A DNA stretch of 64,000 nt, taken from an uncultured Candidatus Saccharibacteria bacterium. Its GTDB lineage: Bacteria; Patescibacteriota; WWE3; UBA101185; UBA10185. A program made the position numbers and the translations under genes. How positions within the stretch are numbered: the stretch's first letter is position 1; each line of letters opens with the position of its first letter. Shown piece after piece: positions 2,368 to 55,491 of the stretch. The notes under the pieces are model-generated. The model saw only the letters and a list, made by a program, of their open reading frames with translations. It was not told the DNA's origin and made no database searches. The stretch spans positions 69,622-133,621 of the forward strand of contig CAZXUJ010000001.1 of assembly GCA_964643995.1 (NCBI GenBank), in the 5' to 3' direction.

Positions 2368-2881
2368 TCCCCATCGTTAGAGTAAGTGAATAAGCAAAAA
2401 AAGTTAGATAAGCACCCAACACTACTGTTGCAATTATGCCAGGTATCAGACTTCCACTCTTAACAACACGCGTTCCAAACAATTCGTCGTGCCATGCTAA
2501 CTTATTTGGATTTTTTAGAACACGTAAATATCCGAGACCAAAAAAACCAACTGAAAATATGTAACCAGGAAACTGTCTATACAAAGCCGTTTTGAAGTCT
2601 AGCAATGAATCATCTCTGGAATTCAAAATTTTTAGTCCAAACAGTAATTTGCCAAGATCGCCCCCGAAATGGCTTACAAAATAAATCAAATAGGTCGTGT
2701 AAAAAACACATGAAAACATGTATAAGCTAGCAGTTAGAATTCCTACTTGAAGCAAGTTGGTACTTTCTGTTATTACAGCAATAAATAATGGGACGGACAG
2801 TAGGGAGAAATAGATAAGTATATTTAAAAATGTGGCTAAAAGTCTTGTAAAAAAACCTGCATTTACCTTAGTTTGTTCCAT
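2360..2881 (-). CDS. RDD-family integral membrane protein
   Basis: 173 aa with 3-4 TM segments and a C-terminal LAWHDELFGTRVV motif typical of the RDD family. Convergent 8-nt overlap with the leuS stop. Confidence 0.55.
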   Translation of the reverse strand: MEQTKVNAGFFTRLLATFLNILIYFSLLSVPLFIAVITESTNLLQVGILTASLYMFSCVFYTTYLIYFVSHFGGDLGKLLFGLKILNSRDDSLLDFKTALYRQFPGYIFSVGFFGLGYLRVLKNPNKLAWHDELFGTRVVKSGSLIPGIIATVVLGAYLTFFAYSLTLTMGTI

Positions 2882-3875
2882 TTGGTTGATCTCCTTGCGT
2901 CATAAAATTAAAAAACATACTCCAAGTAAAATTTTTATACGTAGTTAAGTAGGCACCGACTGCCATAAAAACTTCAATTAAAGCGAAAAGCAAAGGAATT
3001 AAAAGTAAAATTAAAGCAACAACCAATCCCTGGCTCATATTCTCAAAATTTATAAACGATCTCGGTAAAATGAAACTCAACAGGACGCTTACAAACATTC
3101 CTAGGGTTACAAGCATCAATGTGGACACTACAAGACAGTTTGTTATTGCTAAAACAAACACTTTTACTATATTATTTACAAACATTTTCAAGCCTGCCTT
3201 GATAGCATCAAAAGCACCTTCACCCTTTAGAGCAATGTAACGTAATGTAAAGTTGTTACCTAAGGATAAAACAAGTAAAAAGATAAATATTGGTAGTAAC
3301 AAAAGCATGGCAACAGCAAGCAGTGTAGATGTTTCAGCAAGTAAAGCAGAAAGTCCAGCAGCTACAGAGACTATTAATATAACAGCACCGGCAGTGACAA
3401 ATAGCAGTCTATAACGAACAATTTCACGGAGCGACTTACGACCGTAACTACCTAAATCATTGAGGGAGTAACTTCTATCACTTATAGCATCGTTCATGCC
3501 ACCAAGAAATGCTCCATATGCCCAGCTCTGTGTAAATAAGCTTACAGATATTGAGAATACTATAAAAATTATTAAAGCAATGCTAAACAAAATTCTATTG
3601 CCTGTGCTGATAGATGCTATTGCTTTGGAAACGTATGAGAAGTCAGGACGCATATCAGTTTCTCCAAGAACCATACCGACTAGATTTGCAGGTTTAGTTT
3701 TCTGCTTTTGATATTGGTACTGATTTTGATGTTCATTACTAGAGTTAGTATTCGAAGAGCCTCCTACAAAATTAAATGACCCCATAGAACCAAGCATAAG
3801 CGCTAATACCCAAAGCATTTTATGTTTCCATGCTAGTTTTAAAGATTTTGACACTATATCGGATAAGTTATACAT
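2868..3875 (-). CDS. Hypothetical polytopic membrane protein
   Basis: 335 aa with a signal/TM N-terminus, a Q/N-rich linker and about 8 hydrophobic helices. No recognisable catalytic motif. Confidence 0.45.
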   Translation of the reverse strand: MYNLSDIVSKSLKLAWKHKMLWVLALMLGSMGSFNFVGGSSNTNSSNEHQNQYQYQKQKTKPANLVGMVLGETDMRPDFSYVSKAIASISTGNRILFSIALIIFIVFSISVSLFTQSWAYGAFLGGMNDAISDRSYSLNDLGSYGRKSLREIVRYRLLFVTAGAVILIVSVAAGLSALLAETSTLLAVAMLLLLPIFIFLLVLSLGNNFTLRYIALKGEGAFDAIKAGLKMFVNNIVKVFVLAITNCLVVSTLMLVTLGMFVSVLLSFILPRSFINFENMSQGLVVALILLLIPLLFALIEVFMAVGAYLTTYKNFTWSMFFNFMTQGDQPNGTN

Positions 3876-3941
3876 CTGGAATTAAGTATATAGCGTAACA
3901 GATTTAATTTGCAATTAATTTATGTAATGTATACTTTTTGA

Positions 3942-4445
3942 ATGAGGCATCGAACATTTGCAATCGTACTTGGGTCATTAATATTTTTACTGTTTGGGCT
4001 GCTTGAACAGAATAGTGCAAGCAATCTTGAGGAGTACACGGTAGTTGATGTTGTTGATGGAGATACAATAAAGGTACAACAAAGCAATAAAGAGGTTACA
4101 ACAGTACGTCTGATAGGTATAGACACCCCAGAAACCAGTCATCCAAGCAAACCAGTACAATGTTTCGGCAAGGAAGCAACAGAAAAGTTGACGGCCATGG
4201 TGCTAAACAAAACAGTCACACTTGAAAAGGACTCGTCAGAGGTTGATCGTTACGGAAGACAACTTCGATATGTTTATTTCGATGGAGCATTTGTTAATGA
4301 AAAAATGGTACGGGAGGGATACGCTTTGGAATCAGCCTTTGAACCAGACACTAAGTACAAAGACCTATTCAAAGCTGCCGAAGACTATGCCATGGAAAAT
4401 AAAGAAGGTCTTTGGAGTGAAGACACCTGCAACGGTGAGTTATGA
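3942..4445 (+). CDS. Secreted thermonuclease (staphylococcal nuclease-like, SNase fold)
   Basis: Signal peptide followed by DGDTIKV...RLIGIDTPET...RYGRQLRYVY...NEKMVREGYA, which matches SNase catalytic and Ca-binding motifs. Confidence 0.8.
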   Translation: MRHRTFAIVLGSLIFLLFGLLEQNSASNLEEYTVVDVVDGDTIKVQQSNKEVTTVRLIGIDTPETSHPSKPVQCFGKEATEKLTAMVLNKTVTLEKDSSEVDRYGRQLRYVYFDGAFVNEKMVREGYALESAFEPDTKYKDLFKAAEDYAMENKEGLWSEDTCNGEL

Positions 4446-4446
4446 A

Positions 4447-5016
4447 TCAGAAAAGAGATGATTCGTAACGTTTAAGTCTACGTCGTAAGTATTTATATGT
4501 AGGCACTGTTTCACCGACTAAGTCCCAAAATCGTTGCGAATGGTTCATTTCCTTAAGATGACATAGTTCGTGTACAAAAATGTAATCTTGCAGAGCTTCT
4601 TCCAAGTATATTATGCGATAATTAAAACTAAGAGTCCCAGTGTTGGAGCAACTTCCCCATCGAGAGCTTTGATCTCGTACAGTTATTTTCTCATACTTGA
4701 ATTGATAATGCGCATTGAAATATGCCAATCTTTCTTTGGCTAAACGTATAACAGATGCCTTCGCCTCAAGGTATTTTTTACGGTGTATAGTGGGTGTTTT
4801 CCCATCCAAATTCAATTTGTCGAGCTGAGATTGGATCCACAATGTATTTTTGGCAACAAAGCTTTCATAAAAGCTTTCAGAAGTTCTACTAGGAACCGTC
4901 AAAGTTACAACACCTAAAGATGAGACCCTAAGCAACAACTTTTTAGCACGAGGGTTAGCGGTCACTGTGTATCTTAAATATGTATTATTGTTACTTAACA
5001 ATATTTTTTTCTCCAT
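4447..5016 (-). CDS. YgjP-like metal-dependent hydrolase (DUF45 / WLM-SprT-like HExxH)
   Basis: 189 aa with the C-terminal motif FVHELCHLKEMNHSQRFWDLV characteristic of the YgjP/DUF45 family. Confidence 0.7.
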   Translation of the reverse strand: MEKKILLSNNNTYLRYTVTANPRAKKLLLRVSSLGVVTLTVPSRTSESFYESFVAKNTLWIQSQLDKLNLDGKTPTIHRKKYLEAKASVIRLAKERLAYFNAHYQFKYEKITVRDQSSRWGSCSNTGTLSFNYRIIYLEEALQDYIFVHELCHLKEMNHSQRFWDLVGETVPTYKYLRRRLKRYESSLF

Positions 5017-5044
5017 AACAAAAAAGGTCCGGACTAGCCGGACC
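5017..5044 (-). terminator. Rho-independent terminator downstream of the hsp20 gene
   Basis: Hairpin GGTCCGG-actag-CCGGACC (5026-5044) followed on the minus strand by a T-run (A-run 5017-5025 on the plus strand). It lies immediately 3' of the hsp20 stop. Confidence 0.6.
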
Positions 5045-5064
5045 TTACCGTAAGTAATTCAATA

Positions 5065-5481
5065 TTAACTTTTTTTCTTGACAGAGATCTTCTTTGGAAG
5101 ATCTTCATCTGTCTTGGGAACTGTTACGCGAACGATACCATCCTGAACCTCAGCTTCGGCCTTCGAGGCTTGCACGCTTCTTGGTAAGCTTGTTGAGTAT
5201 GTAAAGGATGTTTGACGTGAACTTTTGTATACCACTTTCTTCTTATCTTTTTCCTCCTGGGACTCATCGTGTGACGCACTTATAGTTAAAATATTGCCCT
5301 CAACAGTTACTGCTACCTTTTCTTCGGGAACACCTGGGACCGCTGCTTCTACTACGACAGCATTCTCAGTTTCATATACATCCATCTGAGAACTATCTGA
5401 TAGATCAGGCCACCTAAAAACGTCGTCATCAAAGAAAGACGGCCAAACTGGATACTGTTGCTTCCACTTAATTAAAGCCAT
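5065..5481 (-). CDS. Small heat-shock protein, Hsp20/alpha-crystallin family
   Basis: 138 aa with the alpha-crystallin domain pattern MDVYETENAVVVEAAVPGVPEEKVAVTVEGNILTISA. Confidence 0.85.
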   Translation of the reverse strand: MALIKWKQQYPVWPSFFDDDVFRWPDLSDSSQMDVYETENAVVVEAAVPGVPEEKVAVTVEGNILTISASHDESQEEKDKKKVVYKSSRQTSFTYSTSLPRSVQASKAEAEVQDGIVRVTVPKTDEDLPKKISVKKKS

Positions 5482-5522
5482 AAATAGCCTCCTTTAGTTG
5501 AAATAGATACTAATAGTAACTA

Positions 5523-5549
5523 TTATCAGTCTAGTTAACGGAGTGCTAG
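5523..5549. promoter_or_regulatory. Imperfect CIRCE-like inverted repeat upstream of hsp20
   Basis: TTATCAGTC-N9-GAGTGCTAG; read in the hsp20 transcription direction this is cTAGCACTC-N9-GActGaTAA against the CIRCE consensus TTAGCACTC-N9-GAGTGCTAA (8/9 and 7/9). It sits between hsp20 and galU. Confidence 0.25.
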
Positions 5550-5573
5550 ATGTCAATATGACAATGTATGAAA

Positions 5574-6488
5574 TCAGATTAATAACTCATTGTTAATAAA
5601 GTCGGTTAATTTATCTTTTAAATCCTCTCTCTCCATGGCAAATTTGAGCGATGTCATAAGATAATTTAAAGGGTCTCCTGTTGTTAACCACTCACCTTTA
5701 ATTGGTGGTGCAATTACCTCATTGCCCATTTTTATCAAGTCTGTAATCGCATCAGTTAGCCACAACTCATCATCATTTCCTGTGTGAGCATTTTCAATGT
5801 AATCTACGATGTCATAGTTGAATATGAATCTACCAAACTGGGCCTTGTTGGATGGGGCTTTGTCTCTAGGATATTTTTCACATATTTCAGCTACAGAATA
5901 TGGGTATTCCGATCCTTCTTTGTATCGAACCTGGCCATAGCGGTCGATAACGTCCCACGAAACCTCCTGCACACCCAATACTACCGATGGGCTACGTTCG
6001 TCGAAAGCGTTCATAAGCTGCTTGGTTACAGGGACACCGTTCGACAAGGTCATATCGTCACCAAACATATAGACAAAGGCTTCATCATCATCAATTAAAT
6101 CTTTAACTGCTAAAAGCGGTGATGCATTTCCGTATGGCAAATGATTCTTTTGTCTTACATATATGAAATTGGCCATTTGTGGTATTTGCTGAACTATCTC
6201 AAGATATTTAAGTTTGTTGTGATCTTTAAGATACTGTTCAAGCTCAGAGCGATTATCAAAATAGTCTTCCATGATGTGATTACCTGCACGAGTAACCAAG
6301 ATGATATCGGAAATACCGGAATTAACTGCTTCTTCTACTAAGTAGTGAATAATTGGTTTGTCTATAATGGGTAACATTTCCTTGGGTTGGTTTTTGGTAG
6401 CAGGTAAAAATCTTGTTCCTGTGCCAGCGGCGGCTATAACTGCTTTGGTAATTTTTCCTTTTTGACTCATGGTATCCTTTCTTTTCAA
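5574..6488 (-). CDS. galU: UTP-glucose-1-phosphate uridylyltransferase
   Basis: KAVIAAAGTGTRFLPATKNQPKEMLPIIDKPIIHYLVEEA matches the GalU N-terminal nucleotidyltransferase signature. Confidence 0.88.
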   Translation of the reverse strand: MKRKDTMSQKGKITKAVIAAAGTGTRFLPATKNQPKEMLPIIDKPIIHYLVEEAVNSGISDIILVTRAGNHIMEDYFDNRSELEQYLKDHNKLKYLEIVQQIPQMANFIYVRQKNHLPYGNASPLLAVKDLIDDDEAFVYMFGDDMTLSNGVPVTKQLMNAFDERSPSVVLGVQEVSWDVIDRYGQVRYKEGSEYPYSVAEICEKYPRDKAPSNKAQFGRFIFNYDIVDYIENAHTGNDDELWLTDAITDLIKMGNEVIAPPIKGEWLTTGDPLNYLMTSLKFAMEREDLKDKLTDFINNELLI

Positions 6489-9123: not shown

Positions 9124-9655
9124 CGTGGCAATTATACACTATACTTTTATTGTGGTTATATTCAGAGATCAGAGTTTGTTTGAGTTTCATGAAGCCAGAG
9201 ATTCTGGAGTCACGCGAATATCTAGAGGGAAGTTTATAATTTCGAATTTTATACTGAGTGTTGTATTTTTGGCAATCACAACTGCATTTTTAAAAAACTT
9301 TTATTATGTTGATCTGGCAAACACATGCATTATAAAAACCAAATACTCAATACATACAGAAAACAAAACTCATATACATCAGGCAATTAAGACTATCAGA
9401 ACAACAATGCCAAGTGATTACAAAACTCTTTGCAATTATGTCACTAACATAACCGAAACTAACTGTATTGTCGCCAATGAAACAGGACCTATCATCACAT
9501 ATGCTGATAGCGTAGGTTGCTATATCAAAGGCACAAAGACTGTCTTTATTCAACCTTTAACTACCTCACAAACAAAACCAGACAATGAGGAAATTGCTGA
9601 GAATCTAGCGAGATATTCTAGATATAGCGAAGAATTCTGGCTCAATATACAGTAA
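9104..9655 (+). CDS. Hypothetical membrane-anchored protein, paralog of the 9642-10085 ORF (no HExxH)
   Basis: The ORF track gives 8960-9655. The first in-frame ATG that does not run deep into the upstream divergent gene is at 9104. A TM segment precedes an NFYYVDL...P.DY..CN.V block shared with the convergent neighbour. The start is uncertain. Confidence 0.4.
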   Translation: MFLLFIIVAIIHYTFIVVIFRDQSLFEFHEARDSGVTRISRGKFIISNFILSVVFLAITTAFLKNFYYVDLANTCIIKTKYSIHTENKTHIHQAIKTIRTTMPSDYKTLCNYVTNITETNCIVANETGPIITYADSVGCYIKGTKTVFIQPLTTSQTKPDNEEIAENLARYSRYSEEFWLNIQ

Positions 9656-10085
9656 CTTTATCAAGAAACAGTTTGCCAACTTTATAGCATTCTTGCTCAA
9701 GAAGAGTACGTTTTTCGCTGAATTGACGGGCATGGCAAGTTTCATGCAAAATCAAATCGGCAGCAAAAGCTATATTGCCTTGATCGTTACCTATATAAAT
9801 TACATCTGGTTTATTCATATAAAAACATCCACCATCAAGACCACCACATCCTGGATTTTTATTTACCACACGCACACGATTACATACCTCGGAGTAATCG
9901 CCTGGAGAGGCATATTTGATCAACCTTAAAGCACCTCTTAGATCCAAATTGCTTAATAGAAAAGACGGAACTACTCTTATCACACAGTAACCTGGATGTT
10001 CAAAATCAACGTAATAAAATCTAGATAGAACAAATGTTGAAGATAGAAATATTGTTAGAATTATTAAAACTTTTTTCATAAGCAC
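9642..10085 (-). CDS. Hypothetical secreted/membrane-anchored putative Zn-metallopeptidase-like protein (HExxH)
   Basis: N-terminal TM segment, then RFYYVDF...PGDYSEVCNRV...NIAFAADLILHETCHARQF with an HExxH motif. It is paralogous to the 9104-9655 ORF. Confidence 0.5.
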   Translation of the reverse strand: MLMKKVLIILTIFLSSTFVLSRFYYVDFEHPGYCVIRVVPSFLLSNLDLRGALRLIKYASPGDYSEVCNRVRVVNKNPGCGGLDGGCFYMNKPDVIYIGNDQGNIAFAADLILHETCHARQFSEKRTLLEQECYKVGKLFLDKVTVY

Positions 10086-42768: not shown

Positions 42769-43824
42769 ATGACAGTGAACAAGAAATTATTTCGTCCTCC
42801 CATAAATCTCACTCTTTTAAGGAAATTGATTATTGTTTTTGCCTTCTTGTTCATTTGTTTTCTTACCTTTTTTGTTTATCAGGATCTTTTTATTCGTAAA
42901 AATTGTGTTGGTCCCTGGGGCAGCCAAGCTTGTCGGGGTTTTGAAGCTAATAATATATGTTTCGGTTATCGTTATCCGGTTTGTGGTTCACCAAATCTTC
43001 CTTATTTGCTTACTCAAGAAAAAAGTATAGTACCGTTATATATTGGTGAAACAGAAAAAGGTTGCAGAGAATTTTTTGAGGCAAACTGCCCTATCCACCT
43101 TGGATGCCAGATGATGTGTACGGACTCATATCCATCACATTGTTCTTGTGGAGGTAGATTTTTTAACACTATCAATTTGATTCCAGCTGAAAAATGCATC
43201 CTAGAAACATATGAAACAGAAAACATTCCTAATATTGCAAAAAATGAAATGAAATATGGGATATATTTACATGAAGCATTTTTGCCAACAGAGAACATAA
43301 GTGAGGCTGCCTCCTGTCTAGAGCGCTATCCTAATAAAGAATTTTATGCATATCTCCAATTGACCGAAGCACCTACTGAGGATATTGAAAAACTCTTTGA
43401 TGAACATGGTATGTTTTTACACTTTGCAGCAAGAAACCTATTGTATACAATAAAATTCCCTGCCGAAACAAAGCTGTCAAAAGAAATAAAAGATCACATA
43501 AGGTGGATTGGTGTTTTGGATGTGAAACACAAAGTATCTGAAGACTTGTGGTATGGCACTGTTGACGAATCGGCCTTGACTGAAAATGGTGATGTAAAAT
43601 TGATCGTGAGTTTTTGGGCAGAAGAAAAAGAAGATGGTGCGCGTAAAATTCTGGATAAATATAATGCTTCAGTTGAATCATTCTCTGTTCGCGAAATCAA
43701 GCAAGGTATTAGGTATATAAGTACGCAAATTACAATGAATCCAATTAATTTGCGTGGGTTAGCCTCTGAAAATACAGTAATCGGCATAAGCACAGTTTCT
43801 CCCCCACCAGAAATCTCTAACTAA
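42769..43824 (+). CDS. Hypothetical cysteine-rich secreted protein
   Basis: N-terminal signal/TM. Cys-rich module of about 100 aa (CVGPWGSQAC..C..C.., CREFFEANCPIHLGCQMMC...CSCGG), then a 200-aa domain. The start is uncertain because a TATAAT hexamer lies immediately 5' of the annotated ATG. Confidence 0.5.
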   Translation: MTVNKKLFRPPINLTLLRKLIIVFAFLFICFLTFFVYQDLFIRKNCVGPWGSQACRGFEANNICFGYRYPVCGSPNLPYLLTQEKSIVPLYIGETEKGCREFFEANCPIHLGCQMMCTDSYPSHCSCGGRFFNTINLIPAEKCILETYETENIPNIAKNEMKYGIYLHEAFLPTENISEAASCLERYPNKEFYAYLQLTEAPTEDIEKLFDEHGMFLHFAARNLLYTIKFPAETKLSKEIKDHIRWIGVLDVKHKVSEDLWYGTVDESALTENGDVKLIVSFWAEEKEDGARKILDKYNASVESFSVREIKQGIRYISTQITMNPINLRGLASENTVIGISTVSPPPEISN

Positions 43825-51195: not shown

Positions 51196-52424
51196 TGAAA
51201 TTTTACGATAAACAGAAAGACCCAAAATTTATTTTGGTGGTTTCTATACTCCTTACCTACATTGTAACCATATTCCTGTTGTCAATGAGTGTACGTAAAC
51301 TTAGTGGCAAACTAGGTAACATAAGCGAAGAGCTTATTACTGTTAAAACATCACAGGGAAACTTTGAAAAGAACTTTTCTGATGAACTTTTCTCAGAGCA
51401 TCTTGAAATAAGTGAAAAAAGGAAAATCGAAAATGAATTAGCTGTCTTGAAAATCGAACTAGAAAATCTTAAATCCAGCGAAGACACGACAATAGTTGAG
51501 ATAAATAAAATATTTGAGTTGTTAGAAAATTTCGAGCAAAAAGTAGTCAGAAACGATAAGGTAAAGATCGATTCGGAAAATGTAGATGAAAAAACAAAAG
51601 AATGGGGACTTCTATTGATTAACAAAGATTTTGAAACTATCCAAGATCAAATTGAAGAGAGCAACTCTAAGCTGGACACCAGCTACAATAAATACTTGGC
51701 ATCATTACCCCCACCAGCACCAATTGGAGGTGGCTACTCTTATACTACTGTGGACACAGAGCGTGGAAGGTTTGGTGTTTATTTGATTAAGGTGCCACTT
51801 TCTGAATATCGGGTCAAAACTGTTACGGCGGCCAAAGATGACTGTAGTGACAACTGTCCAACCAAAAGCTTAGCCGAATATGTAAACGAAAATAATGGTT
51901 CTGTAGGTATGAATGGTTCTTATTTTTGTCCACCTGACTACTCAAACTGCAGCGGAAAAGTTAACACTTTTGACTATGCTTTATACGATTCGAATGCTAG
52001 AAAATGGATTAACAAAGATGCACGCTCTTGGGGAGATACAGGTTTAATGACTTTTAACGGCAATAGCGCAAGATTTTACAAAAGATCCTCTGACTATGAT
52101 GGAGATGGTGTTGATGCCGCTATTTCCAATTACCCTGCCCTGCTAGAAGATGGCAATATCGCTGTTGATGAAGACATACTAACTTCATATCAAAAAGATG
52201 TTAAGGGTACACGTGGCGCTATAGGATTTGGAGGAGAAAACATATATCTCGCACTTATCTTAGGGGCAACAGTTGAGGATGCCGCCTATGCTATGAGGTC
52301 ACTAGGCGCGAGAGATGCATTAAATCTTGACGGTGGTGGCTCATCAGCAATGTACTCAAATGGGGGGTACATTGTGGGTCCCGGACGAAGTTTGCCTAAC
52401 GCTATTGTTCTAGTAAGAAATTAG
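51195..52424 (+). CDS. Membrane-anchored protein with a C-terminal phosphodiester-glycosidase (NAGPA-like) domain
   Basis: N-terminal TM, a coiled-coil of about 120 aa, and the C-terminal motif ALNLDGGGSSAMYSNGGYIVGP...PNAIVLV typical of PF09992. 1-nt overlap with the dnaQ-like gene. Confidence 0.6.
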   Translation: MKFYDKQKDPKFILVVSILLTYIVTIFLLSMSVRKLSGKLGNISEELITVKTSQGNFEKNFSDELFSEHLEISEKRKIENELAVLKIELENLKSSEDTTIVEINKIFELLENFEQKVVRNDKVKIDSENVDEKTKEWGLLLINKDFETIQDQIEESNSKLDTSYNKYLASLPPPAPIGGGYSYTTVDTERGRFGVYLIKVPLSEYRVKTVTAAKDDCSDNCPTKSLAEYVNENNGSVGMNGSYFCPPDYSNCSGKVNTFDYALYDSNARKWINKDARSWGDTGLMTFNGNSARFYKRSSDYDGDGVDAAISNYPALLEDGNIAVDEDILTSYQKDVKGTRGAIGFGGENIYLALILGATVEDAAYAMRSLGARDALNLDGGGSSAMYSNGGYIVGPGRSLPNAIVLVRN

Positions 52425-53700
52425 GTTCACTTTCGTAGTCGTAGTTATATCCAGTATCACGTGATAAAACTGTAGTATTTGGATGCTTTTCTTTCCATTT
52501 TGCCCAAGTGGTAGTTGTTGTAGGAATAACATTTAAAACGGCCTTGTTCTCAAATGCCGGACCAGATATAGCTTCACCTGTTGATTGTAACCACAAGCTT
52601 TCAATCTCAGAACGATCATAGATAATTGCATCACCTTCATATACATCACCCGAAAAACCAAACTTTGTATCGTACATACCTAGTAACCCGATATATGAAA
52701 CAGCAGTCTCACAAAAAGCACAGAAGTTTACAACAACAGGTGCTTCGTTATACATATCGTTTACAACTTTATGCCAGCGAAGTATTTTTCGGGGGTAAGC
52801 GCGCTGAATATCTAGGTAATTCACCCCAAAAACCACATCCTCATCTTTTAGCCATTCAGAAGAATCCAGTACAGACTCAAACTGTGGATAGTCTATTGGT
52901 GGGTAACAAGATTCTCTATCACAAAGTCTCTCAATTTTAGTCTTGTCAAAAACCAGGTCTTGAGGAGGTAGTAGTATGTCTTGAGCGCCAAACTTTGTTT
53001 CAACAAGGGATGCCACAGTTACCCAATTCTCAGGCAAATTATCCAAAAACCAAACTTGCAAACGCTTTTCATAGCCAAAATAAACAAAAACAGAAGTTAG
53101 CATCAAAATAATCCCAAAGATCTGACGAACTAAAACATGGTTTTGTTTTACAAAATTTAATTTGGAAGTAAACCTACTACCTTGCGTTGCAATTAACCAA
53201 AGTGGAACACCTACACCAATAGCATAGGCAAGGACCAAAGCAACTGAGGCTAGGGATATTTTGTTAACAGCTGCTAGCGTCGAAATAGCCGCTACGATTG
53301 GACCCACACAAGGGGTCCAAACTAAACCTAAACCAACACCAGTAAAAAAGCCACCTGAAAAACCAGGCCTCGTAGTCGTGGTAAATTTGCTAAAGAGGTG
53401 CTCAATGTAAAACTGAAGTTTTTCCCATATTGGAAACAATATTGATATACCAATACCAAACAAAAGAACCGATGCTGAGAGACGCAAAAAATCAGCAGAA
53501 ATCCCTAACAACGTAACAAATGCGGATAAAAATAGCGCAGCTGCAGAAAAACTTAAAACAAGTCCAATAATTACCCCCTTTACACGAGACTTATTTCCAT
53601 CCAGGCCGCTTGAAAGTATTATGGGCAATATTGGAAGAACACAAGGTGAAAAAACTGTCAGCATGCCGGATAAAAAAGCGACAGGGAGTAAAGTAAGCAT
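52402..53700 (-). CDS. CcdA/DsbD-type thiol-disulfide transmembrane electron transporter fused to a C-terminal DUF3179 domain
   Basis: N-terminal 6-TM CcdA core with LTVFSPCVLPILP and WTPCVGPIV cysteine motifs. The C-terminal 200 aa match DUF3179 (GVNYLDIQRAYPRKIL..HKVVND, FCAFCETAVSY CxxC, LSRDTGY). Confidence 0.75.
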   Translation of the reverse strand: MLTLLPVAFLSGMLTVFSPCVLPILPIILSSGLDGNKSRVKGVIIGLVLSFSAAALFLSAFVTLLGISADFLRLSASVLLFGIGISILFPIWEKLQFYIEHLFSKFTTTTRPGFSGGFFTGVGLGLVWTPCVGPIVAAISTLAAVNKISLASVALVLAYAIGVGVPLWLIATQGSRFTSKLNFVKQNHVLVRQIFGIILMLTSVFVYFGYEKRLQVWFLDNLPENWVTVASLVETKFGAQDILLPPQDLVFDKTKIERLCDRESCYPPIDYPQFESVLDSSEWLKDEDVVFGVNYLDIQRAYPRKILRWHKVVNDMYNEAPVVVNFCAFCETAVSYIGLLGMYDTKFGFSGDVYEGDAIIYDRSEIESLWLQSTGEAISGPAFENKAVLNVIPTTTTTWAKWKEKHPNTTVLSRDTGYNYDYESEPNFLLEQ

Positions 53701-53703
53701 ACT

Positions 53704-54303
53704 TTATAAGTTCTCCAATATTGTTTCTACCCCGCCTCCAAGCCATTTACTTATTTCCTTACCTTGGCGGTTTACGTGAACAAATGTATGTTGGGCTGTC
53801 ACATTGTATTGCCTCTTAAGATCTGTCTCAGTGTCATAATTTAGTTTTAAAATTGTAAGCCCTTTTGGTAAAAGGGTATGGTCTTTCTGAATGCTTTTAT
53901 CAGCAGAACGACAGGTAGGACACCAATCAGCGTAAAAAAACAGCAAAGCTTGACCTTCATCTTTGAGAATCTGATCCAAAGCTGTTTTGGAGTAATTTAC
54001 ATAATTTTGTTTTATAGGAGTACCTGCATTGGGATCAGCTACAGCAGGCGCATTTACAACAGGCTGTGTTGGCTGAGATTCTGCAGGAGCGGGTTCAGCA
54101 GAAACTTCTGGAGTCACCTCATTTATTGGAGGTGTTGGTTGCTCAGTTATAGTTTGTGATGATGGAGTAACTGTTACTTCAGGCGCACTTGGATCTTCAC
54201 GTAAAAACACGAGAAGACCAATCAATATAAAAACGCCAAACATGCTAACTAAAGCAACAACAGTGTTGGTTTTATTGTGATTAGGACTTGAAACCTCTTC
54301 CAT
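53704..54303 (-). CDS. Membrane-anchored thioredoxin-like protein (TlpA/ResA-like)
   Basis: N-terminal TM, a Pro/Thr-rich linker, and a thioredoxin fold with ALLFFYADWCPTCRS (WCxxC). Confidence 0.8.
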   Translation of the reverse strand: MEEVSSPNHNKTNTVVALVSMFGVFILIGLLVFLREDPSAPEVTVTPSSQTITEQPTPPINEVTPEVSAEPAPAESQPTQPVVNAPAVADPNAGTPIKQNYVNYSKTALDQILKDEGQALLFFYADWCPTCRSADKSIQKDHTLLPKGLTILKLNYDTETDLKRQYNVTAQHTFVHVNRQGKEISKWLGGGVETILENL

Positions 54304-54428
54304 AAAGTAATATTAACATAATGCAGTAGTAGTGGAGGGGCACAAACAAAAACTTTGAAAAAACGATGCGTGCCTCTCAGACTAAAAAAACATTTTTGAA
54401 AGATGGAGTCAAGAAGTTAAGAGAGACA

Positions 54429-54466
54429 CAAGCGTATTGTCGTTTATTTGACATACAATACGCTTG
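54429..54466. repeat. Perfect 12-bp inverted repeat with a 14-nt spacer (CAAGCGTATTGT-N14-ACAATACGCTTG)
   Basis: Read directly from the sequence. It is located between the 3' end of ORF 54490-55491 and the start of the thioredoxin gene, and has no adjacent T-run typical of intrinsic terminators. Confidence 0.5.
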
Positions 54467-54489
54467 CGTTGCGCAGTCTCTCTAAGCAT

Positions 54490-55491
54490 CTAGTCCAAAT
54501 TGATATCCCATATTTCCCCTTGAGAAAATACCGGAAAACTATGCAGGAGATCAGACCAGCTGGATGGGTTAATAGAAAAAGCACGGCTGAGATCATAACC
54601 AGTAGCATCAACACCATTTCTTTTAATGTTGAGAGCAGTTGTTACACTCACTTGGGAGGTTGGGTAGTTAGCAACTATACTCTCTACAGTTCCTCGTGAA
54701 GAGCTATAATCTCGTACCAACAAGGCAGAGTTTTGTACAGAAGAAGCACTCCATATGAGCTGATAGACAGCTTTTCCGCTGAGCCTTAAACCAATCAGCT
54801 TCACTAACTCAGCGATGGGGGTTTGCCAAGCCTGGCGTTCTCTCCATGCCTTTGCACCTTTGCAACCAACCTCATTTGTTGCGTGCTCGTTTCTGCAAAG
54901 CACATAGGCACCATTGGACAAACGAACTGGATGATAGATAACCTCACTTCTTTGGTTACTACAATCCGGGCATGGGACCTTTCCTAATGCATTACCCCCA
55001 TACCAACTCAAATCAACGAGTGGCACGTTGAAAGATTCCTCCAGAGGCAATACCAACCCAACCTTTGCAATCCCTAGGAAAATGCCTAAATTTTCGAGCA
55101 ACTCAGCTCGTTTCAGATGTACAGGCCCTAAAAGTGCCGCAGGAGCAAAGTTCCCCGAGACCTTTGCGATATTCCGCATGTACGGATCATAAAAATCCCT
55201 CCACTGAGAATCATCCACAGCGTCTCCAGCAGGCCATAAATGCCGATATTCGCCCAAAGTACCGCCATATCCCATAAACGATACTAAATTCTTCCCTGGA
55301 TACTGCGTTGCAATTGCCAACTGTAAGAACAGCTCTGACGCCCGAAGATTCGGACTAGGTGTGCTGGCATCAGCCAACATCCAAGTCTCTATATCCGGAA
55401 CACCTATAGAAGCATCCCAACGATTCTGAAAAGCTTCTTTGGCTACATTGTAACCACTTTCATCTGAGCTGAATCTCTTCACAATTTTCAT
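54490..55491 (-). CDS. Hypothetical protein in a GC-elevated islet
   Basis: 333-aa ORF. Local GC is about 47% against about 36% in the flanks. Cys cluster CPDC...C...C. Motifs GDAVDD...RNEH weakly resemble metallophosphoesterase motifs, but no confident family assignment was made. Confidence 0.5.
   Translation of the reverse strand: MKIVKRFSSDESGYNVAKEAFQNRWDASIGVPDIETWMLADASTPSPNLRASELFLQLAIATQYPGKNLVSFMGYGGTLGEYRHLWPAGDAVDDSQWRDFYDPYMRNIAKVSGNFAPAALLGPVHLKRAELLENLGIFLGIAKVGLVLPLEESFNVPLVDLSWYGGNALGKVPCPDCSNQRSEVIYHPVRLSNGAYVLCRNEHATNEVGCKGAKAWRERQAWQTPIAELVKLIGLRLSGKAVYQLIWSASSVQNSALLVRDYSSSRGTVESIVANYPTSQVSVTTALNIKRNGVDATGYDLSRAFSINPSSWSDLLHSFPVFSQGEIWDINLD

Follow-up and report, generated by a model that had tools for sequence, protein, structure and literature searches.

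A CcdA-DUF3179 fusion and its anchored thioredoxin: a candidate outward-directed reducing pathway in a Candidate Phyla Radiation bacterium

The DNA analyzed here, referred to as the window, is a 64,000-nucleotide stretch of contig CAZXUJ010000001.1 (positions 69,622 to 133,621; assembly GCA_964643995.1) from an uncultured Candidatus Saccharibacteria bacterium. Two adjacent genes at 52402-54303 of the window encode a thioredoxin-like protein and a fusion of the membrane electron shuttle CcdA with a domain of the DUF3179 family (PF11376). We propose that the two genes would specify a self-contained, outward-directed reducing pathway, in which DUF3179 would be a terminal extracytoplasmic reductase based on cysteine (Cys) or selenocysteine (Sec) and fed by CcdA and the thioredoxin, and we give this reading a probability of roughly 0.6. 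An outward pathway fed by CcdA had been suggested in a preliminary description of this DNA; that core is upheld by the predicted topology, the conserved CxxC motif and the linkage of the genes in other genomes, whereas the general isomerase role proposed along with it is not supported. The genes and the features that bear on the reading are listed below, with amino acids abbreviated aa, open reading frame ORF and transmembrane TM, and the basis of each assignment in brackets.

53704..54303, minus strand: thioredoxin-like gene, 199 aa (ORF and Pfam Thioredoxin)
54202..54264, minus strand: TM anchor of the thioredoxin, about aa 14-34 (hydropathy maximum 2.93)
53911..53925, minus strand: WCPTC active-site motif of the thioredoxin, aa 127-131 (sequence)
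52402..53700, minus strand: CcdA-DUF3179 fusion gene, 432 aa (ORF and Pfam)
53065..53700, minus strand: CcdA (DsbD_TM) domain, aa 1-212, six TM helices (Pfam PF02683)
53641-53643, minus strand: catalytic Cys20 (SPCVLP) in TM1 (alignment)
53308-53310, minus strand: catalytic Cys131 (TPCVGP) in TM4 (alignment)
52423..52905, minus strand: DUF3179, module 1 only, all-beta, aa 266-426 (Pfam PF11376)
52756..52776, minus strand: W309-H-K-V-V-N-D315 motif, 17 residues before the CxxC (family consensus WHEIVND)
52711..52722, minus strand: C327-A-F-C330, the CxxC of DUF3179, within FCAFC at aa 326-330 (conservation; placed in a beta-hairpin turn by the structural model)

In the ORF listing the two minus-strand ORFs, at 53704-54303 and 52402-53700, share the same orientation, and the spacer between the thioredoxin stop and the fusion start is 3 nt (TAA-agt-ATG), not the 4 nt stated in the preliminary description. 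Because of this short spacing the genes would be co-transcribed. Otherwise the pair had been recognized correctly, since both the ORFs and Pfam confirm a thioredoxin followed by CcdA-DUF3179 with its FCAFC motif, and the membrane anchoring claimed for the thioredoxin agrees with the single hydrophobic segment found by hydropathy in its product (aa 10-40). From the N-terminus onward, this product consists of the TM anchor, about 60 aa of linker rich in Pro, Thr and Glu and, at the C-terminus, the thioredoxin domain (PF00085, 40.9 bits, cut-off 23.5; E 2e-10). The fusion protein matches PF02683 with 48.2 bits (cut-off 27.1; aa 3-205, profile positions 3-213 of 219) and PF11376 with 164 bits (cut-off 27; E 7e-48). 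The fused DUF3179 domain is thus present as described, but only as its N-terminal half: the match covers profile positions 4-161 of 292, after which the protein ends at residue 432.

A full HMMER scan of 1.84 billion representatives yielded 5,779 DUF3179 clusters, and conservation was derived from the best 149 of these. In this set the first position of the CxxC is Cys in 95% (the remainder mostly Ser), and the second is Cys in 85% and Ser or Thr in 13%; in 94 fusions from the Candidate Phyla Radiation (CPR) both Cys327 and Cys330 are invariant. The motif is surrounded by near-invariant residues, namely His310 (98%), Asn314 (99%), Asp315 (95%), Asp362 (99%), Trp370 (98%) and Gln372 (99%), while at position 311, where 91% of the family have Glu, Lys is confined to the window clade.

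DUF3179 is included in two reviews among the prokaryotic selenoprotein families, with the motif UxxC/T (PMC9312934, PMC13188914). Scanning metagenomes with the pattern WHE.VND-x11-TGA-CCN-NNN-TGY gave at least 120 contigs, and among the matches listed the in-frame TGA is read through in 115 of 120, with a median of 191 further residues. The read-through frames align to the whole DUF3179 model with E-values down to 1e-131, and the TGA falls on Pfam profile position 65, which is the position of Cys327 in the window. The window codon at this site is TGT (52720-52722), i.e. the window copy is the Cys form and not the Sec form. In selenoprotein biology, motifs of this kind are read as an attacking residue followed by a resolving one. 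Sec at the first position, with Ser/Thr only at the second, would accordingly mark a catalytic redox motif with an attacking and a resolving residue, and the invariant His, Asn, Asp, Trp and Gln around Cys(Sec)-x-x-Cys/Ser/Thr suit the active site of a dedicated enzyme better than a general isomerase.

The membrane part of the fusion has the sequence features of CcdA. Cys20 and Cys131, both in PCxxP-type motifs, are invariant in 18 of 18 aligned fusions, and a profile built from the fusions matches the solved CcdA structures 5vkv (E 2.7e-16) and 2n4x (E 7e-11). The same part aligns to TM1-6 of DsbD (NCBIfam PRK00293, positions 174-381), although the match is restricted to the TM core and the whole-protein scores are far below their cut-offs (DsbD PRK00293, 34 against 330; TsoB NF045694, 46 against 805). 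The domains before and after the TM core of DsbD are periplasmic. In the CcdA part of the window protein six hydrophobic segments are found, with nine Lys and Arg residues in loops 1-2, 3-4 and 5-6 as against one in loops 2-3 and 4-5. Since this distribution follows the positive-inside rule, the fusion is predicted to be oriented N-out/C-out with DUF3179 outside the cytoplasm. An N-terminal hydrophobic signal or anchor is furthermore present in 133 of the 149 DUF3179 representatives, and the family as a whole is therefore exported. The preliminary description had made its proposal depend on an outer-face location and on conservation of the CxxC among homologues, and both expectations agree with the predicted topology and the observed conservation.

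DUF3179 is linked to CcdA and to thioredoxins well beyond the window. CcdA-DUF3179 fusions make up about 95 homologous protein clusters, of which all the named ones come from CPR/Microgenomates (Daviesbacteria, Roizmanbacteria, Gottesmanbacteria, Levybacteria and Pacebacteria); proteins of the fusion type are already found in databases as 'DUF3179 domain-containing protein' or 'CcdA'. In each of eight distinct CPR loci an orthologous thioredoxin gene lies directly upstream of the fusion, at a distance of 1-28 nt. In addition, 21 of 71 representatives of at least 400 aa carry an AhpC-TSA/Redoxin domain (TlpA-like, WCxxC) N-terminal to DUF3179. A degenerate DNA-pattern scan of one genome per GTDB species provided at least 120 loci in blocks of 8 kb; all 120 listed loci fall in DUF3179 ORFs, and their hosts are very diverse bacteria and archaea. 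Among these listed matches a CcdA-like ORF occurs in 7 of the 120 blocks and a thioredoxin- or TlpA-like ORF in 15. With one to three copies per genome the chance rate for ccdA would be well under 1%, which is a rough estimate and not a measured value. When lineage synteny in Rhodobacteraceae is set aside, the neighbors that cluster within 3 kb are led by Crp-type regulators (9 loci), CcdA (6) and TlpA (5), the last with a median gap of 4 nt and 80% co-orientation. The linkage is also seen with Sec forms, where, of 35 listed contigs of at least 5 kb, 8 contain CcdA and 16 a thioredoxin-like gene; the genes are typically arranged as Redoxin-CcdA-DUF3179, which Pfam confirmed on contigs L011, L195 and L240. 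Taken across the family, linkage to CcdA and thioredoxin is a minority pattern, yet it is recurrent, phylogenetically broad and of three kinds. The neighborhood survey with ccdA, dsbD and tlpA that had been suggested earlier thus ties DUF3179 to ccdA and tlpA through fusions as well as operons.

Some loci hold more than one copy of the domain. On contig L195 a DsbD_TM and AhpC-TSA fusion (1084-2802) precedes two consecutive DUF3179 genes (2876-5612), and on contig L164 (6790-10439) two consecutive DUF3179 genes follow a thioredoxin-like ORF. In both pairs the DUF3179 gene matched by the pattern has the in-frame TGA (Sec), and the other copy is also interrupted by a stop. Two to three copies in a single chain are found in the proteins P0121 (1004 aa) and P0122 (1587 aa).

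In the proposed pathway, a cytoplasmic thioredoxin would reduce Cys20/Cys131 of CcdA, and CcdA would then move two electrons through the membrane, both steps being modeled on the known function of the CcdA family. On the outside, the electrons would pass from CcdA to the WCPTC motif of the anchored thioredoxin and from there to Cys327-x-x-Cys330 of DUF3179, the latter step being suggested by the thioredoxin-DUF3179 fusions; alternatively, CcdA might reduce DUF3179 directly. DUF3179 would be the terminal consumer, i.e. an all-beta enzyme module without thioredoxin fold that reduces a specific oxidized extracytoplasmic substrate, with Cys327 (Sec in many relatives) attacking, Cys330 resolving, and the invariant His and the conserved Asn, Asp, Trp and Gln alongside. 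That the domain would be an enzyme, and not a relay or a metal-binding module, we infer from the use of Sec and from the invariant polar residues.

The window protein represents a shortened form of the fusion, both in the DUF3179 domain and in the segment that connects it to CcdA. The features of this segment are:

52906..53064, minus strand: extracytoplasmic linker, aa 213-265 (low model confidence; alignment)
52906-52923, minus strand: Cx4C pair Cys260/Cys265 in the linker (family alignment)

DUF3179 is a tandem duplication: the half-domain of the window also matches the C-terminal half in 108 of the 149 representatives (phmmer, best E 1e-8), and both halves open with VxGxxxxGxx[RK]AYP. Nearly all CcdA-DUF3179 fusion clusters are 545-565 aa long, and only the window protein and two relatives with 87% and 79% identity are 430-432 aa. 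In the alignment the short fusions stop ~115 residues early, before the conserved FWFAWxAFHP motif, and the linker of the window protein falls about 45 aa short of that in fusions of full length. The locus L247 (51% identity) has the thioredoxin, the fusion, a convergent NAGPA gene, RNase T and a histidine kinase as in the window, and its fusion is of full length (562 aa). Given the same flanking genes, the deletion of module 2 is placed by these comparisons within the window lineage.

The truncated form has been kept in three genomes, with 100%, 87% and 79% identity. Comparison with the 79% relative (locus L001) gave a ratio of nonsynonymous to synonymous substitution rates (dN/dS) of 0.10 for the fusion gene and of 0.07 for its CcdA part; for the DUF3179 module dN is 0.19 with dS saturated, so that dN/dS is well below 0.2. 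Of 36 highly conserved positions in module 1, 30 are retained in the window copy, including His310, Cys327 and Cys330, and three substitutions (E311K, P328A and L329F) affect positions that are 87-94% conserved. By these measures the single module of the window is under purifying selection and not decaying.

The Cx4C pair in the linker co-varies as either C..C (about 29% of the family) or G..G and is paired in 42 of 44 cases, which suggests an optional structural disulfide. A metal finger was also considered for this pair and ruled out by the Cys-Cys/Gly-Gly co-variation and by the absence of the pair from about 70% of the family. Two further proteins have an unusual domain structure. In P0096 (399 aa) a clean deletion extends from the RAYP in module 1 as far as the corresponding site in module 2, by which the CxxC module is lost; either a recombination of one repeat with the other or an artefact of assembly would fit this. 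In P0066 (663 aa) the CcdA-DUF3179 frame continues into an ArsR-type regulator, which is probably due to a missed stop or a sequencing error.

AlphaFold2 modeled the window module alone with a mean predicted local distance difference test score (pLDDT) of 88 and a predicted TM-score (pTM) of 0.81, and the full DUF3179 domain of a Daviesbacteria fusion with 95 and 0.92, respectively. Both models are almost entirely beta, and the confidence obtained for the module alone indicates that the truncated module would fold autonomously. The pLDDT is low over the first ~30 model residues (aa 221 to ~250), which belong to the linker. In the model His310 precedes a beta-hairpin ending at Cys327, and the CxxC lies in the next turn. 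Foldseek searches of the PDB gave no match at E <= 0.001 for either module 1 or the full domain, and the domain therefore has no close solved relative there; all E-values exceeded 0.05. The weak, insignificant top matches were Rieske-fold proteins in both cases: NirD (2jo6; probability 0.89, TMt 0.49) and PetC3 (5cxm) for module 1, and CntA, HcaE, toluene and naphthalene dioxygenases, KshA and stachydrine demethylase for the full domain. Rieske proteins bind their cluster through ligands spaced CxH-x15-17-CxxH. These boxes are not matched in the window protein, which has RWH...CAFC (xWH...CPLC in the family) and thus lacks two of the four ligands, and in Pfam scans up to E 10 neither Rieske nor any other family was connected to DUF3179 by sequence.

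The partner thioredoxin deviates from the canonical thioredoxin fold at one site:

53788..53790, minus strand: His172 at the cis-proline position of the thioredoxin fold, QHT instead of I/Y-P-T (HMMER alignments to PDB chains)

In these alignments the query 'aqHt' stands opposite 'gyPt' of PDIA4 and 'aiPt' of the thioredoxin 6ali. The second-best PDB sequence match, 5zf2 ('TRX-H', WCPVC), is also without cis-proline (QQST). In ten CPR partner thioredoxins, including those of L001-L005 and L247-L250, the cis-proline position is His in nine and Asp in one, and all ten have an equivalent N-terminal hydrophobic segment and the active-site motif WC[PQ][TS]C. Proline is otherwise nearly universal here, and its replacement could affect how substrates are released or give rise to a Cys2-His metal site. 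TlpA and ResA are members of the AhpC-TSA/Redoxin families. The window thioredoxin scores below the Pfam cut-offs of both (AhpC-TSA PF00578, 23.7 against 26; Redoxin PF08534, 18.2 against 26.6) and far below those of the NCBIfam DsbE models. The term 'TlpA-like' used for it in the preliminary description, at odds with these scores and with the His at the cis-proline position, holds only as a functional analogy.

Several observations weigh against the proposed pathway. About 87-94% of the listed genome-sample loci are without CcdA or thioredoxin in their 8-kb block, and the usual reductant of DUF3179 may be encoded elsewhere or be a different one. The lack of a cis-proline is unusual in a disulfide exchanger such as the partner thioredoxin would be. 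In the window copy module 2 is missing, a 91%-conserved Glu is replaced by Lys and CPLC by CAFC, so that its activity may depart from the family norm. Finally, the module has regulators of metal type as neighbors in other CPR genomes: ArsR/SmtB-type HTH_5 proteins lie beside it in three Daviesbacteria (L002, 5161-5529; L249, 3106-3474; C-terminus of P0066), and in L250 (5835-6101) a CsoR-type Trns_repr_metal protein follows it, succeeded in turn by a DUF1573 protein. These regulators, together with the His or Asp beside the CxxC of the partner thioredoxin, would fit a metal-binding or metallochaperone module, in which His310, Cys327 and Cys330 form a mononuclear site (e.g. for Cu or Zn) on a Rieske-like scaffold and the pathway only keeps the ligand cysteines reduced, much as TlpA keeps the copper chaperone ScoI reduced. 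Rieske-fold proteins are the only recurrent fold matches in the PDB, and the His-x16-CxxC arrangement with its intervening beta-hairpin resembles the CxH-x15-17-CxxH of Rieske proteins. We nevertheless consider a metal site unlikely: Ser or Thr at the second position in 13% of the family and Sec forms with UxxC/T are a pattern of redox catalysis rather than of metal ligands, two of four Rieske ligands have no counterpart, no Foldseek E-value is below 0.05, and the ArsR and CsoR families also include non-metal sensors of persulfide or redox state.

DUF3179 could instead serve as a relay similar to DsbD-alpha, receiving electrons from CcdA (as the beta domain) via the thioredoxin (as gamma) and passing them on to several extracytoplasmic clients as a reductase/isomerase hub. 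The same three redox modules do occur in DsbD (TM domain, thioredoxin fold and beta-rich Cys-pair domain), the NCBIfam DsbD and TsoB models weakly match both the CcdA part and the thioredoxin, and relatives of the organism have no obvious need for cytochrome c, with no CxxCH ORF in the window. On the other hand, the DsbD score is far below its cut-off (34 against 330), in most genomes DUF3179 is secreted as a separate protein and neither CcdA nor a thioredoxin is linked to it, Cys-rich exported proteins are not enriched near the operon, and both the many invariant polar residues round the motif (His, Asn, Asp, Gln and Trp), which suggest small-substrate chemistry, and Sec, which is typical of catalytic and not of relay sites, make such a hub improbable. 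That the half-domain of the window is a decaying remnant, with only CcdA and the thioredoxin being of importance (e.g. for general thiol homeostasis of the envelope), is very improbable. It would account for the loss of module 2 (about 115 aa, including the FWFAW motif) and of about 45 aa of linker, for E311K, P328A and L329F at conserved positions, and for P0096 as another natural deletion variant; the shared truncation in three genomes, the low dN/dS of the module, the retention of 30 of 36 conserved positions and the confident model of the module alone all speak against decay. For the proposed reducing pathway a more specific version can be formulated, which we regard as tentative: DUF3179 would constitute an unrecognized class of extracytoplasmic Cys/Sec reductase built on a duplicated, possibly Rieske-derived beta module instead of a thioredoxin fold and powered by CcdA/TlpA, its substrate being a specific oxidized species, e.g. 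a peroxide, sulfoxide, persulfide or metal(loid) ion; in CPR bacteria it would be hard-wired to CcdA, and module 1 alone would be the catalytic unit.

The closest functional parallel is provided by CcdA-Etrx-MsrAB2, described as extracellular reducing systems of Streptococcus pneumoniae and S. gordonii (PMC3914529, PMC7034828). As in the window, CcdA there serves a thioredoxin-fold protein anchored at the surface (to membrane or lipid), which in turn serves a dedicated terminal reductase outside, the genes are found together, and the host does not use the pathway for cytochrome c maturation. In the window, however, the terminal acceptor is the all-beta DUF3179 instead of MsrA/MsrB and is covalently fused to CcdA, and the thioredoxin is TM-anchored, of PF00085 type and without cis-proline. 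With DsbD/ScsB the window system shares a homologous TM core with two Cys in TM1 and TM4, and outer modules consisting of a thioredoxin fold and a beta-rich Cys-pair domain. It differs in that the thioredoxin is a separate polypeptide, the beta domain is C-terminal, six instead of eight TM helices are present and the NCBIfam DsbD score is 34 bits against 330; DUF3179 is moreover unrelated to the Ig-like DsbD-alpha. The window system thus resembles both CcdA-Etrx-MsrAB2 and a rearranged DsbD, yet belongs to neither, since its terminal domain is unrelated to Msr and DsbD-alpha and the DsbD and TsoB scores are far below the cut-offs.

The CcdA-ResA/CcsX/TlpA pathways, which act in cytochrome c maturation or, in the case of TlpA, in the reduction of ScoI/CoxB, likewise have ccdA adjoining the gene for an anchored thioredoxin-like protein, and DUF3179 operons outside the CPR use true TlpA-like partners (Redoxin/AhpC-TSA). 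Unlike these pathways, the window contains no cytochrome c or Sco genes, and its thioredoxin falls below the AhpC-TSA/Redoxin cut-offs. Compared with DUF3179 (PF11376) as a selenoprotein family, the window protein is a clear member by sequence for module 1, with Cys327 as the Sec equivalent, but it is a Cys form with one of two modules and fused to CcdA. The likeness to Rieske-fold domains (NirD, PetC3 and the N-domains of oxygenases) is weak although recurrent and includes a similar His...CxxC spacing; DUF3179 differs in lacking the CxH/CxxH ligand set, the E-values are insignificant, and there is no sequence relationship in Pfam. In the literature found that mentions DUF3179, no link to CcdA or TlpA is described.

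The surroundings of the gene pair in the window add the following feature:

54304..54489, minus strand: intergenic region upstream of the thioredoxin gene, 186 nt (sequence; terminator-like site)

The terminator-like site is a hairpin at 54459-54475 that probably marks the end of the preceding gene, in which case the operon would have its own start, and the thioredoxin and fusion genes appear to form an operon of their own. In 54304..54489 the scan called no sigma-70-like promoter, so that a promoter of the operon is only presumed; the counts from the promoter and terminator scans equal those expected from shuffled sequence and are hence uninformative. Directly upstream lies an ORF at 54490-55491 (minus strand, 333 aa) without Pfam or NCBIfam match at E <= 0.01, and the gene in the same position in L001 encodes a 480-aa protein that likewise has no Pfam match. 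Downstream, the convergent NAGPA-family gene overlaps the 3' end of the fusion gene by 23 nt (52402-52424); as the fusion and NAGPA genes of the full-length relative L247 are 68 nt apart, the overlap would be a by-product of the module 2 deletion. A role in cytochrome c maturation was also considered and finds no support within the window, which has no credible CxxCH ORF, the lone match being antisense to a longer gene.

According to the preliminary description, many Cys-rich secreted proteins are encoded nearby and DUF3179 might be a disulfide reductase or isomerase for them. Neither part of this suggestion held up. Cysteine accounts for 0.8% of the residues over 54 window ORFs, and clearly Cys-rich exported proteins are encoded by only two of them, both more than 8 kb away: 42769-43824 (plus strand; 351 aa, N-terminal TM segment, 13 Cys, 3.7%) and 9642-10085 (minus strand; 147 aa, signal-like N-terminus, 6 Cys). 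Thiol-disulfide systems of the envelope may have these two proteins as clients, yet neither gene adjoins the operon; with such neighbors missing and the conserved polar residues pointing to a dedicated enzyme site, the assignment is unsupported.

In other CPR genomes, Crp/MarR-type proteins lie upstream of the module (L003 and L248), and class-I pyridine-nucleotide disulfide oxidoreductases, glutaredoxins and a DsrE gene are found within a few kb. The flanking genes in CPR suggest a metal- or reactive-sulfur-responsive redox island, none of whose genes are present in the window. At 4 of the 120 listed loci (L106, 6729-7220, and three others) a co-oriented gene directly downstream of DUF3179 encodes a small multi-TM protein of about 160 aa with several Cys, for instance in ...LGCKLD... 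and ...PLGCCGWW..., and without Pfam match, which might serve DUF3179 as a further redox partner in the membrane.

DUF3179 is a large family (5,779 clusters at 50% identity, from bacteria and archaea and with many selenoprotein forms) that has no assigned function. The fusion, the operon and the Sec evidence together place it in a concrete and testable biochemical context, the CcdA/thioredoxin pathway, where it would be a new terminal module beside the known envelope-reducing clients, i.e. cytochrome c maturation, Msr, Sco/CuA and DsbC/G. The contribution of the window itself is a naturally minimized, single-module form, which would offer a minimal construct for biochemistry. For CPR bacteria, with their minimal redox metabolism, the conservation of a hard-wired version suggests an important activity in repair or detoxification at the cell surface.

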